Assembly (NCBI GenBank): GCA_964196275.1
Contig: CAXMSN010000092.1
Coordinates: forward strand, 1,296 to 65,295
Length of the DNA: 64,000 nt
Direction of reading: 5' to 3'
From: an uncultured Kiloniellales bacterium
GTDB taxonomy: Bacteria > Actinomycetota > Acidimicrobiia > Spongiisociales > UBA5794
A program made the translations under genes and the position numbers. The notes under the pieces are model-generated. The model was not told where the DNA came from, made no database searches, and saw only the letters and a list, made by a program, of their open reading frames with translations. Shown piece after piece: positions 33,537 through 52,210 of the stretch (positions within the stretch are counted from its first letter, which is position 1; every line of letters starts with the position of its first letter).

Positions 33537-35204
33537 ATGTCGAAGAAGATCCACTCCCAAGATGTAACGATCGGTCCTGCTCGGGCCGGTGCCAGGGCGA
33601 TGCTGCGAGCAGTCGGCCTCAGCGAGGACGATTTCGCCAAGTCACAGATCGGCGTTGTCTCAGCGGGCAACGAGGTCACGCCGTGCAACGTGACCGGGCC
33701 CAAGCTTGCAGGCTTCGCAAAGATCGGCGTCAGAGAGGCCGGCGCTGTGGGCCTCGAGTTCGCGACGATCGCCGTCTCGGACGGTATTTCCATGGGTCAC
33801 GAGGGGATGCGGGCTTCTCTGGTGTCGCGTGAAGTCATCGCCGACAGCGTGGAACTGGTCATGCATGCGGAGCGCTTCGACGGGATGGTGTCGATCGCAG
33901 GGTGCGACAAGTCGCTTCCAGGCATGCTCATGGCTGCAGCACGGCACAATCTGCCATCCGTCTTCCTCTACGGAGGTTCGAGCTTGCCCGGCAACCTCGA
34001 TGGCAAGGACATCTCGATCGTCGACGTGTTCGAAGGGATCGGTGCCCACTCCGAAGGCTCGATCTCAGACGAGCAACTGCTCCGCATCGAGCAAGCAGCA
34101 TGCCCGGGGGTTGGGTCATGTGCCGGCATGTTCACCGCAAATACGATGGCTTCGGTTGGCGAGGCGATCGGTATGTCTCTGCCAGGGTCGGCCTCGGTGC
34201 CAGCGGTCGATCCAAGGCTTGATGATTACGCCCACCAGTCCGGCGAGGCGGTCGTTGCGCTCCTGGAGGCTGGCATTACGCCCCGCGACATCATGACGCG
34301 TGAGGCTTTCGAGAACGCGATCACGACGGTGATGGCACTCGGTGGCTCGACGAATGCCGTTCTTCACCTGATGGCCGTTGCCTACGAAGCCGGCGTCGAC
34401 CTTACGCTCGAAGATTTCGACGCGATCTCGCGCAGAACGCCGCACATCGGAGACATGAAACCGTTCGGGAAGTACCACATGGTCGACCTCGACCGCATCG
34501 GCGGCGTTCCGGTCGTGCTGAGGGTGTTGCTGGACGCCGGGCTTCTCCACGGTGATGTGATGACCGTTACGGGAAGAACGATGGCCGAGAATCTCGCCGA
34601 CGTGGTGGTTCCTGAGGATCAGGACGTTCTTCTCCCGATCTCAGATCCGCTCGCTACCGAGGGAGGCATCGCTGTACTGCGCGGCTCGCTTGCGCCAGAA
34701 GGTGCGGTTGTCAAGATCGCCGGAGTCGAACTCGATGTGTTCGAGGGCAAGGCGCGGGTGTTCAACGATGAACAGCACGCCCTCGAGGCTCTCTACGCGC
34801 ACGATCTCAAGCATGGTGACGTTGTGATCATCCGCTACGAGGGCCCGAAGGGCGGCCCTGGCATGCGCGAGATGCTCGCCATCACTGCGGCGATCAAGGG
34901 TGCGGGACTCGGCAAGGACGTGCTGTTGATCACCGACGGGCGGTTCTCCGGTGGAACGACCGGTTTGTGTGTCGGACATGTGGCGCCCGAGGCCGCAAAC
35001 GGTGGCCCGATGGGCCTCATCGAGGAAGGCGACACAGTCCGAATCGACATCCCGAACCGCAAACTCGACATCCTCATCGATGACGATGAACTCGCTCAGC
35101 GCAGAGAAACATGGGAACCAATCCCACCGCGTTACACAAGGGGCGCGCTCGCCAAGTACGCCAAGCTCGTTGGATCAGCTGAATCGGGCGCGGTTCTGTC
35201 CTAG
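33537..35204 (+). CDS. ilvD: Dihydroxy-acid dehydratase
   Basis: [27 protein letters not shown] and similar motifs. Alternative starts lie at 33513 and 33486. Confidence 0.95.
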
Positions 35205-35225
35205 GCAGACGGCGGGCAACGCTTC

Positions 35226-35426
35226 GTCCTCCCTGAGAGGGAGGACGGGCGAGCGTAGCGAGCCAGGAGGGTGTTGGTTACCGGAGAACATTGGACCTGC
35301 AACATCCCCCTGCATCGTCCCTGCGCTTCTCTGCCGCCCGATATCCAGCCGCTCCGGGTTCGCAGGCTCACAGTCCCCCCTGCATCGTCGCTGCGCTCCT
35401 CTGCCGTCCCCCCTAAAGGGAGGACG
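35226..35426 (+). repeat. Structured intergenic repeat, copy A (contains an internal duplication)
   Basis: Opens with hairpin GTCCTCCCT-GAG-AGGGAGGAC, then GGGCGAGCGTAGCGAGCCAGGAGGGTGTTGG. Two copies of CCCCCTGCATCGTC(C/G)CTGCGCT(T/C)CTCTGCCG follow. It ends with hairpin CGTCCCCCC-TAAA-GGGAGGACG. Homologous to copies at 50312 (inverted) and 52027. Confidence 0.85.
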
Positions 35427-35485
35427 AACGGAGTGCTGGTCGGCGGTCCGTGGAATATCGCCCCCTTCACGCCTACGCTTCCACC

Positions 35486-49417: not shown

Positions 49418-50231
49418 CGACGACCGATGAACCGATCATCGTCCGGATCTGTCTGGCGTTCGACTTGCCAACGGCGAGCACCGACCACAGCGCCGCGATC
49501 CCCACGCCTGCGATGAATCCCCCGAGGTGGCCCAGCCAGTCGATGTTCGGGTTGAGGAACGGCATCGCGATGTTGATCGCCATGAGGAATCCCAATTGGT
49601 TGAACATCGCTCTTCCGCCAGGGGTCTTGCGCATCTTCCAAGCGACGAACAGCCATGCTCCGAACAGGCCGAAGATCGCACCGGACGCTCCGACCGAGAA
49701 CCCTGCGCCACCAAGGACCATCGAAAGCAGACCGCCTGCTCCTGCAGCAGCGACGTAGAGAGACGCGAATGCCGGCCCACCAACCTGCTGCTCCAAGCGC
49801 GGTCCGAAGAGATAGAGGGCGTACATGTTGAAGAGGAGATGCATCAGGCTGCCGTGAAGGAGAGCCACCGTGAAGATCCGATAGGCGTCAGGATCGACGA
49901 ATGGCGTACCGGACCTTATCAGCGCGAAGTGTTCGAGCAACCAGATCTCGGCTTCGGGGACGAGCCACCCGAGGAGGAAGATGGCCGACGTCACCGCGAT
50001 GATCGACATCGAGACGGGCGAGGTCTGGAACGAAGGTCGCCCGATCGCGGACCGGCTGGTGACAACTCTTGTGCGGGCGTCTGTCTTGGCACAGTCCGGG
50101 CACTTCTGACCTACGGACGCGTCATGTGAACATTCGACACAGATCGGGTTTCCGCACGTCGTACATGACAAACGCGTTGCCCGGTCAGGATGCCGGTAGC
50201 AGGTGATCGTGGTCGATTCTTCCATGGTCAT
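49383..50231 (-). CDS. Rhomboid-family intramembrane serine protease with an N-terminal zinc ribbon
   Basis: Trimmed to MTMEESTTITCYRHPDRATRLSCTTCGNPICVECS. Contains HLLFNM and GASGAIFG (catalytic Ser) plus a downstream His. Confidence 0.85.
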   Translation of the reverse strand: MTMEESTTITCYRHPDRATRLSCTTCGNPICVECSHDASVGQKCPDCAKTDARTRVVTSRSAIGRPSFQTSPVSMSIIAVTSAIFLLGWLVPEAEIWLLEHFALIRSGTPFVDPDAYRIFTVALLHGSLMHLLFNMYALYLFGPRLEQQVGGPAFASLYVAAAGAGGLLSMVLGGAGFSVGASGAIFGLFGAWLFVAWKMRKTPGGRAMFNQLGFLMAINIAMPFLNPNIDWLGHLGGFIAGVGIAALWSVLAVGKSNARQIRTMIGSSVVVAVTVLAFLAV

Positions 50232-50265
50232 AGAAAGGTAACGACGAGGAGCGCAAAGCTGTTCC

Positions 50266-50308
50266 GTTCGCTCGGCTTCGCCTCGCTCCAGACGACGGAT
50301 CAGCGACG
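50266..50308. repeat. Short dispersed intergenic motif, copy M3
   Basis: GTTCGCTCGGCTTCGCCTCGCTCCAGACGACGGATCAGCGACG directly abuts the large repeat copy B. Confidence 0.6.
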
Positions 50309-50311
50309 TCT

Positions 50312-50441
50312 CCGTCCTCCTTTCAAGGGGGACGGCAGAGGAGCACAGCGACGATGCAGGGGGATGTCGCAGCCCCAAGATTCCAGGTTGCCAACACCCT
50401 CCTGGCTCGCAAGCTCGCCCGTCCTCGCTCGCAGGGAGGAC
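50312..50441 (-). repeat. Structured intergenic repeat, copy B (inverted relative to A and C)
   Basis: Its reverse complement aligns with copy C. The first about 54 nt (hairpin 1 through CCAGGAGGGTGTTGG) has 1 mismatch, and the last about 58 nt (ACATCCCCCTGCATCGTCGCTG..GTCCCCCTTGAAAGG.GGACGG) has 2 mismatches. The central 20-30 nt differs. Confidence 0.9.
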
Positions 50442-50535
50442 AGAAGCTTCGAGGCGACCGCCCTCGACTGGTCCGTGGTCTTCTTCGGGAACATCTTGTT
50501 CCCGTTGTTCGTTATCTCGTAACTGTCTCTGAGGG

Positions 50536-51996: not shown

Positions 51997-52026
51997 TAGG
52001 AAGGTCGGAGTCGCCCCGATACTTCT

Positions 52027-52210
52027 GTCCTCCCTGCGAGGGAGGACGGGCGAGCTTGCGAGCCAGGAGGGTGTTGGGGGGGAAGTGCCTTGGCACCGTG
52101 ACTCTGCAACATCCCCCTGCATCGTCGCTGCGCTCCTCTGCCGTCCCCCTTGAAAGGGGGACGGAGGTATAGCGGTCTTCTGAAAGGGGGACGAAGGTAT
52201 AGCGGTCTTC
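52027..52210 (+). repeat. Structured intergenic repeat, copy C, with a 30-nt tandem duplication at its 3' end
   Basis: Opens with hairpin GTCCTCCCT-GCG-AGGGAGGAC, runs through ...CAACATCCCCCTGCATCGTCGCTGCGCTCCTCTGC, and ends with hairpin CGTCCCCCT-TGAA-AGGGGGACG. TGAAAGGGGGACG(G/A)AGGTATAGCGGTCTTC then occurs twice (52151-52180 and 52181-52210). Confidence 0.9.

Follow-up and report, generated by a model that had tools for sequence, protein, structure and literature searches.

The spacer between ilvD, whose stop codon lies at 35204, and a SelW-like gene carries copy A of a structured repeat at 35226-35426 of the window, by which we mean the whole 64,000-nt stretch of DNA that was analysed. 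Four parts had been described for this element in the original prediction (a hairpin, a conserved arm, two tandem versions of CCCCCTGCATCG and a second hairpin), and all four were found. Copy A was resolved as a composite unit made of an M1 half-unit, a spacer, a truncated M2 arm, an M3 module and a complete M2 half-unit, all on the plus strand; on the contig this reads M1+, M2+(1-41), M3+, M2+(9-59) at C92:36522-36721. The unit starts with hairpin H1, GTCCTCCCT-GAG-AGGGAGGAC (35226-35246), with the perfect 9-bp stem that had been claimed for it, and the sequence of this stem covaries across genera. The conserved arm GGGCGAGCGTAGCGAGCCAGGAGGGTGTTGG (35247-35277) consists of a small hairpin, SL2, and a purine tail. 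SL2, GGGCGAGCGTAGCGAGCC (35247-35264), reads GGC / GA / GCGTAGC / GA / GCC: its three closing pairs covary, it contains a tandem G·A, and its apex corresponds to the GCGNAGC mini-hairpin. The purine tail AGGAGGGTGTTGG (35265-35277) has the C-rich tract CAACATCCCCCTG as its pairing partner, and 96% of cells were paired between the two (columns 48-57 with 110-119).

Behind the tail lies a variable spacer of 22 nt, apical in the long hairpin (35278-35299), followed by the first C-rich tract CAACATCCCCCTG with an M2 arm that lacks the terminal hairpin (35300-35336), the 37-nt M3 module CCCGATATCCAGCCGCTCCGGGTTCGCAGGCTCACAG (35337-35373) and the complete M2 half-unit (35374-35426), which is the reverse-oriented counterpart of M1. 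The latter contains the second C-rich tract TCCCCCCTG and arm (35374-35405), with a local stem GCA..TGC, and hairpin H2, GTCCCCCCTAAAGGGAGGAC (about 35405-35426), with arms CGTCCCCCC-TAAA-GGGAGGACG. H2 is present as described, with one C·A mismatch in its stem. The sequence CCCCCTGCATCGTCNCTGCGCTNCTCTGCCG occurs twice (35306-35336 and 35376-35406), and the 31-nt arm pattern has a chance expectation of 0.00 in the window. The two versions of CCCCCTGCATCG were confirmed as copies but not as neighbours, because their starts are 70 nt apart and M3 stands between them. Folded as ssDNA, copy A reached -49.2 kcal/mol (z = -3.9), and none of 200 shuffled sequences was equally stable.

Homology of copy A to two further copies in the window was confirmed by repeat search and three-way alignment, with 83-97% identity over the shared modules and unrelated centres. 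Copy B (50310-50458, minus strand, 139.9 bits) is a simple M1-spacer-M2 unit in the spacer between a rhomboid gene on the minus strand and a DUF3179-like gene on the plus strand. Copy C (52010-52166, plus strand, 148.2 bits) is also a simple unit, with H1 at 52027-52047 and H2 at 52143-52162, and a 30-nt tandem duplication behind it (52151-52180 and 52181-52210, plus strand) extends the copy to 52210. The duplicated segment, TGAAAGGGGGACGRAGGTATAGCGGTCTTC, comprises the 3′ arm of H2 and flanking sequence, and the duplication stops 2 nt short of the purL stop codon. Copies B and C bracket a single gene, the DUF3179-like one, in mutually inverted orientation. This bracketing was the sole reason for considering attC sites of an integron cassette array, which would share one orientation behind each cassette and adjoin an intI gene. 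A composite transposon formed by B, this gene and C was considered and rejected, since the rhomboid-DUF3179(-purL) order is kept without any element in G004, G005 and G010. This order is ancestral and element-free; therefore B and C are separate insertions rather than the ends of a composite transposon. A 110-aa ORF at 50190-50522 (plus strand) overlaps copy B and the upstream region of the rhomboid gene, is mostly repeat-derived and in all likelihood spurious; for annotation, small ORFs should not be called in spacers that hold these units.

The source MAG (G000; 2.09 Mb, 139 contigs, 82.75% complete) was searched as a whole by blastn-short and then by iterated nhmmer. The nhmmer search returned 140 module matches (35 M1, 75 M2 and 30 M3) at 65 loci on 39 contigs, so the element is far from being confined to the three copies of the window; such confinement was what the original prediction had named as speaking against it. 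M1 stands for H1, SL2 and the purine tail, and M2 for the C-rich tract, the arm and H2. M2 is in essence the reverse complement of M1, so the unit consists of two inverted half-units of about 50 nt around a variable spacer. Each half-unit has a 9-bp hairpin whose 5′ arm is pyrimidine and whose 3′ arm is purine. A smaller hairpin comes next, in which three pairs covary, the GAs form a tandem GA/GA and the apex is either GCGNAGC or GC-YY-GC, and the AGGAGGG tail comes last. Two such half-units placed inversely around a spacer of 20-45 nt give a unit of about 135 nt that forms a long hairpin. About 20 loci in G000 carry simple units and about 30 carry single half-units. M3 is present at about 13-17 loci, the units that bear it including copy A and units on C36, C117, C56, C67 and C69, and it also occurs reverse-complemented in units of other genera. 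Tandem arrays were found on C70 (three units with a period of 141) and on C113, and an array of four in G105 (contig C7).

All 65 loci lie between called genes, partly by construction, because the elements were masked before gene calling; the flanking genes end close to the elements. Among 62 loci, 18 were convergent, 15 divergent and 29 co-directional, compared with 314, 306 and 1240 in the genome background, so that convergent gene pairs flank 29% of the loci versus 17% of the background. Eight of the 65 loci were within 500 nt of a contig end, where 6.6% would be expected. In a widespread group of uncultured aquatic actinobacteria, assemblies are broken up and spacers filled by this repeat, for which a name and a model are now available. 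Within 5-50 nt downstream of three units in G000 (C70:2256-2340, C76:1895-1975 and C93:7309-7389), among them the triple tandem array of C70, there is sequence resembling tRNA; GGATTTGAACCC, GGATTCGAACCC and GGAATCGAACC beside these units look like reverse complements of T-arms.

The distribution of the repeat among relatives was then determined. By BLAST, eight of the ten other genomes of the genus and one other genus carry the family; G002 alone holds at least 30 units with their own consensus, at 75-78% identity to those of G000. A covariance model, R1, was built from 34 units of G000 and G002 (alignment A2). With R1, full-length units were detected in 43 of the 101 genomes sampled from this taxonomic family, spread over 11 of 30 genera, and many of the positive genomes hold 10-30 or more copies and tandem arrays. 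In a sample of 151 genomes of the class, R1 matched four: G000, two further members of its taxonomic family and a single genome from a sister family; outside the taxonomic family the model therefore matched one of 146 genomes in that sample. The congeners G006 and G010, each at least 95% complete, contain no copies, and copy number across genomes ranges from 0 to over 30.

The folding of the units was examined next. As RNA, the plus strands of 34 simple units of about 135 nt (copy A not among them) gave folding energies of -63 to -86 kcal/mol, with a mean advantage of 4.4 kcal/mol over the minus strands. Both the stable folds of these units and the ssDNA fold of copy A bear out the earlier suggestion that the arms are complementary and that the whole unit could form one long hairpin. 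In the long-range helices of the G000 and G002 units 92.6% of cells were paired, no better than in shuffles; covariation beyond shuffles is not seen here because the columns hardly vary within these two genomes. From genus to genus the sequences differ but the architecture persists. Six H1 variants were recorded (GTCCTCCCT/AGGGAGGAC, GTCCCCCTT/AAGGGGGAC, GCCCTCCCT/AGGGAGGGC, ATCCCCCTT/AAGGGGGAT, GTCTCTCCC/GGGAGAGAC and CTCCCCCC/GGGGGGAG), and the closing stem of SL2 appeared as GGC/GCC, GAC/GTC, AAT/ATT, GCC/GGC, GCG/CGC or CCC/GGG, every one of these stems enclosing the invariant GA...GA and a GCGNAGC or GC-YY-GC apex. About half of the G000 and G002 copies have GC-YY-GC in place of GCGNAGC.

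Covariation was quantified in an alignment of half-units (A4; 46 sequences from 20 genomes) against 500 shuffles and slid controls. Paired cells amounted to 89.6%, compared with 81.3% in shuffles, and cells changed on both sides numbered 49 versus 16.1. The covariation score was 0.325, against 0.201 for shuffles and 0.11-0.15 for slid controls. None of the 500 shuffles reached the observed values. Because the copies of any one genome are mutually related, these counts overstate the number of independent events; several of the stem variants are confined to different genera. The covariance analysis that had been proposed as a check thus revealed structure-preserving covariation in both hairpins of the half-unit, and at least 11 genera have kept the architecture, with compensatory changes. 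A perfect long hairpin, GAGTGATTTCGCC-TTT-GGCGAAATCACTC, directly upstream of a G004 unit (G004:C8:357120-357165, locus L276) is unrelated to the family.

Conserved folding of this kind could mean that the half-unit or the whole unit is primarily a functional RNA, either a multicopy sRNA of the Whalefall-1 type or a cis-acting 3′-UTR element that stabilises or terminates the upstream mRNA, with repeats that exist because the RNA is useful. The two-hairpin layout with its compensatory changes and the greater stability of the plus strand are in favour of this explanation. So is the orientation of the full units in G000, where seven of the eight located between co-directional genes were sense (7 to 1), and so are five G000 copies that begin 10-11 nt past a stop codon. 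At C28:12210, C29:1069, C70:1846, C117:1830 and C4:1058, a TGA or TAG stop lies exactly 10 nt before H1; this 10-nt pattern was absent from the other genomes examined, and the left flank of the element may sometimes supply or overlap the stop codon. When the same orientation test was applied to five to six other genomes (G002, G105, G058, G085, G065 and G118), however, 10 units were sense and 8 antisense, and the contexts of units in these genomes were 15 convergent, 18 co-directional and 7 divergent. Single half-units in G000 also showed no bias (18 to 15 and 16 to 13, sense versus antisense). The sense bias was accordingly discarded as evidence for a 3′-UTR role, as the 7 to 1 ratio of G000 was not repeated elsewhere. 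Apart from those full G000 units, the element has no strand preference relative to neighbouring genes.

An intrinsic terminator was likewise rejected. Neither hairpin of copy A is followed by a T-run, since GAACGGAG comes after H2 and GAAGCGTT after the reverse complement of H1, neither of which would give a U-tract, and 15 of the 62 loci lie between divergent gene starts. With no orientation bias beyond the full units of G000 and no T-run, a cis-acting role in mRNA is therefore probably not what maintains the family. The flanks contain no conserved promoter-like sequence, and their positional conservation vanishes about 4 nt away from the hairpins; flanks so devoid of conservation speak against the existence of about 65 independent sRNA genes.

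Rfam was searched with the whole window, and no match was obtained at the gathering thresholds, in keeping with the original prediction, in which the family was not recognised. Searches by E-value gave just miRNA-precursor noise, that is, generic long hairpins, and sub-threshold matches to Whalefall-1 (RF01762). Whalefall-1 is an orphan, a candidate ncRNA for which a whale-fall metagenome is the sole known source; on the question of being RNA it received a 'Y' from its authors (Weinberg et al., 2010, PMC2864571), and the Rfam curators class it as RNA. The order of its parts is that of our half-unit, with a pyrimidine/purine hairpin (UCUCUCC..GGAGAGA), a second hairpin and a CAGGGUGAGG tail; the two hairpins and purine-rich tail that define it have their counterparts in H1, SL2 and AGGAGGG. 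Half-units of the congeners G004 and G003 scored 33-36.6 bits over the full 56-position model, and at E <= 0.01 the model matched 42 of the 101 genomes of the taxonomic family versus 1 of 14 control genomes. The gathering cutoff of 37 bits was reached in none of the 101 genomes, the best score being the 36.6 bits of G004, and copy A itself scored 16.4 bits. The Whalefall-like half-units of G004 occupy the M1 position of units of about 200 nt, the other end of which is an M2 like that of copy A, and another G004 unit has the tandem-GA SL2 instead of the Whalefall-like form.

There are also differences. The SL2 of copy A belongs to the tandem-GA/GCGNAGC type, whereas the second hairpin of Whalefall-1 is plain Watson-Crick, and Whalefall-1 was described as a stand-alone noncoding RNA whereas the repeat here is dispersed. 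The flanking 5′-CGAG-3′ contexts of SL2 are of a kind that would favour tandem sheared G·A pairs in DNA, and GCGNAGC together with a tandem GA placed in CGAG is characteristic of DNA hairpins, which speaks against the RNA explanation. A review of the extraordinarily stable 'mini-hairpin DNA' of Hirao and colleagues (PMC13037366) gives GCGNAGC as the consensus; the apex of copy A, GCGTAGC, fits that consensus exactly, as do those of most genera (GCGAAGC, GCGCAGC and GCGGAGC). In contrast to the bare mini-hairpin, the SL2 apex sits in a longer stem with tandem G·A. Since the plus strand is 4.4 kcal/mol more stable and Whalefall-1 is classed as RNA, an RNA-level function of the element is possible; as the reason for the existence of the repeats, we regard it as unlikely.

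Comparison of orthologous spacers showed that copies are gained and lost between species. The ilvD-SelW spacer measures 9 nt in G006 and about 40 nt in G002, holds inverted heptamer arrays in G009, G004 and G003, and contains the element in G000 only among the genomes compared. When the element-bearing loci of G002, G105 and G085 were mapped back onto G000, nine syntenic spacers filled in G105 or G085, which belong to other genera, had no element in G000, the empty gaps being 4-985 nt long (five of them at most 88 nt). Three syntenic G002 spacers were likewise without an element in G000. Sites occupied in both genomes amounted to about four for G002 and G000 and one for G085 (g6) and G000 (g1). 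The relatives compared are all different species with spacers that cannot be aligned, and an exact insertion junction is not definable among them; a metagenome scan for strain-level empty sites gave no contig above 77% identity.

Such presence/absence polymorphism could also be produced by a classical MITE, an internally deleted DDE transposon whose terminal inverted repeats are recognised by a transposase encoded elsewhere, for example one of the IS481/IS3 type. The palindromic ends TTCGTCCTCCCT ... AGGGAGGACGAA, the size of 130-200 nt and the intergenic dispersal agree with this, and transposases of the rve family occur in the genus. However, no target-site duplication was detected, the direct-repeat score being 6.3 for a copy's own flanks versus 6.1 for flanks of different copies, and flank pairing was not copy-specific either (complementarity 7.1 versus 7.0). 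The ends of the unit had been called TIR-like. They do resemble each other in inverted order, yet with neither target duplication nor flank pairing they are better described as two inverted half-units of about 50 nt, similar to BIMEs, than as TIRs. The free half-units (about 30 loci) and the shuffling of modules are also a better match to BIME-type mosaics.

A candidate autonomous partner was looked for among the transposases. Genes of the rve, DDE_Tnp_1 and IS110 groups occur in low numbers in the incomplete genomes G000, G002 and G004, and none of those found there was bounded by ends like H1 or H2. G000 has a single rve gene, of the IS3 type, and the 3.1-kb contig on which it lies gave no match to the hairpin arms except for one 9-mer with one mismatch far from the gene. 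No TnpB-type (Cas12f/TnpB) zinc ribbon was found in G000. The Y1 transposase domain of RAYTs (Y1_Tnp, PF01797) had no match at E <= 0.001 in 14 genomes (the 11 of the genus, G105, G058 and G085), which include element-rich, near-complete ones but are not all complete; the PF01797 control search gave matches in 6 of 14 reference genomes. For Y2_Tnp, the control itself had no match anywhere. With no target-site duplication and no matching autonomous element, membership among MITEs fails, and we consider this origin quite improbable.

IS elements were instead found within the repeat. At three sites in G002, an IS481-like element with a single-ORF HTH+rve transposase lies inside the H1 loop, in both orientations. 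At the left junction GTCCTCCCTYRA is joined to GG-TGATCTGTCGCGG, and at the right junction GAAATGCAACA is joined to CCTCGAGGGAGGAC; the IS ends (TGATCTGTCGCGG... and ...GAAATGCAACA) are unrelated to the repeat, and the IS is inside the hairpin rather than bounded by it, which is a further point against the MITE explanation. Another, different IS, which passes the cutoff of the IS481 family, was mapped at one end, where it adjoins a half-H1 (CCCTCGAGGGAGGAC). The sites at which IS481-family elements meet H1 are on G002 contigs C29 (L141, 2100-3260), C89 (L119), C91 (L126) and C146 (L140/L113). IS481-family elements thus use the hairpin loop as an insertion site, and their target is apparently the palindromic CCCTYGAGGG loop.

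Of the known systems, REP/BIME is the closest both functionally and architecturally. As with REPs, BIMEs and REPINs, the repeat consists of short GC-rich imperfect palindromes in tens to hundreds of intergenic copies, often between convergent genes, and like the BIME and REPIN doublets it forms inverted pairs with a variable linker and tandem clusters. Species-specific consensus sequences are a further shared trait, and REPs are targets into which IS elements insert (PMC1525189), in parallel with the insertions in H1. On the other hand, no Y1/RAYT gene was present in the 14 genomes searched, unlike the case of RAYT-linked REPs, whose cognate transposase gene typically has REPs on its flanks; there is no GT[AG]G tetranucleotide 5′ of the hairpin, the left-flank consensus being tTC followed at the boundary by GTCCTCCCTG; the repeat unit has two hairpins and a purine tail (about 50 nt) and not the one hairpin of a REP; and the host is a family of uncultured actinobacteria rather than Enterobacteria or Pseudomonas. 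Without RAYT and GTAG, membership in the RAYT-linked REP class fails. BOX of Streptococcus pneumoniae and MITEs of the Correia/ERIC type are modular mosaics of 100-200 nt, with a long-hairpin fold and intergenic dispersal. Our repeat is similar to them in having end modules and a repeatable middle module, with sequences that are probably unrelated. In Correia and ERIC the terminal inverted repeats are well defined and the target is duplicated, whereas no target duplication was seen at copies of the repeat.

A full-text search of a limited set of papers found no description of such repeats in this bacterial group, and the family appears to be a set of hairpin repeats of one actinobacterial family not described before. 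That it is a multicopy intergenic palindromic repeat, as a MITE/REP-type reading had proposed, was borne out by the 65 loci, the tandem arrays and the filled and empty orthologous sites. We conclude that copy A is probably a composite member of a lineage-specific, REP/BIME-like mosaic repeat family that operates at the DNA level.

A different reading at the DNA level is that the units are host-domesticated sites, bound by a nucleoid, topoisomerase or replication/repair protein and kept by selection rather than by transposition. Conservation of the architecture over at least 11 genera, the neutral orientation and the few shared orthologous sites (one between the two genera of G085 and G000 and about four between the congeners G002 and G000) are compatible with it, and E. 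coli BIMEs bind IHF, gyrase and Pol I (PMC2817692). Nevertheless, the lack of copies in G006 and G010, the difference of most orthologous sites between species and a copy number that varies from none to more than 30 are against selection for a host site, and no candidate binding protein was identified. We assign little probability to this reading.

For a mosaic repeat acting at the DNA level, the following course may be proposed. The unit of about 135 nt could be extruded as a cruciform in duplex DNA or, when single-stranded, form one long hairpin, and the element would act and spread at the DNA level. Both hairpins would probably be recognised as folded ssDNA by a putative trans-acting enzyme other than RAYT/Y1. 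In transcribed copies, a probable side effect of the very stable hairpins is that 3′ exonucleases are stopped or transcription pauses, as happens at REPs of E. coli. The most likely activity of the element is hairpin or cruciform recognition by a putative factor at the DNA level, with effects on mRNA 3′ ends being secondary; most likely, the elements also serve as safe landing sites for IS elements.

A more far-reaching proposal joins these points into a RAYT-independent REP-type system of the whole taxonomic family, in which the half-unit is the folded-ssDNA target of an enzyme family not so far connected with repeats, Whalefall-1 is such a half-unit and not an RNA gene standing alone, and the hypervariable heptamer arrays flanking or filling the units are a by-product of this machinery. 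We put it forward as a speculative idea that may well turn out otherwise. If it were true, an entire bacterial family would have inherited the system and preserved its structure, and a GCGNAGC mini-hairpin closed by tandem G·A would be part of the recognised half-unit. REP/BIME-style doublets may persist and turn over without a Y1 transposase, to judge from 14 genomes that are not all complete, and the lack of a Y1 match in these genomes reopens the question of what moves such elements. The findings also offer a concrete re-reading of the orphan Rfam family Whalefall-1. The covariance model, together with about 100 diverse sequences, is a basis for seeking the trans-acting factor by phylogenetic profiling.

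Tandem heptamer arrays were observed around the units as a separate feature. They flank copy A on both sides (window positions 35205-35225 and 35427-35455) and also occur at G002 loci L111-L130. In G000, a heptamer array lies within 80 nt of 22 of the 65 loci, compared with 76 of 845 spacers overall. The C-rich strand predominates in arrays upstream (13 to 6) and the G-rich strand in those downstream (12 to 1), which makes the arrays an inverted pair enclosing the unit. In G085 and G003, heptamer arrays are situated within the central spacer of the unit, and orthologous spacers without a unit often contain heptamer arrays alone.
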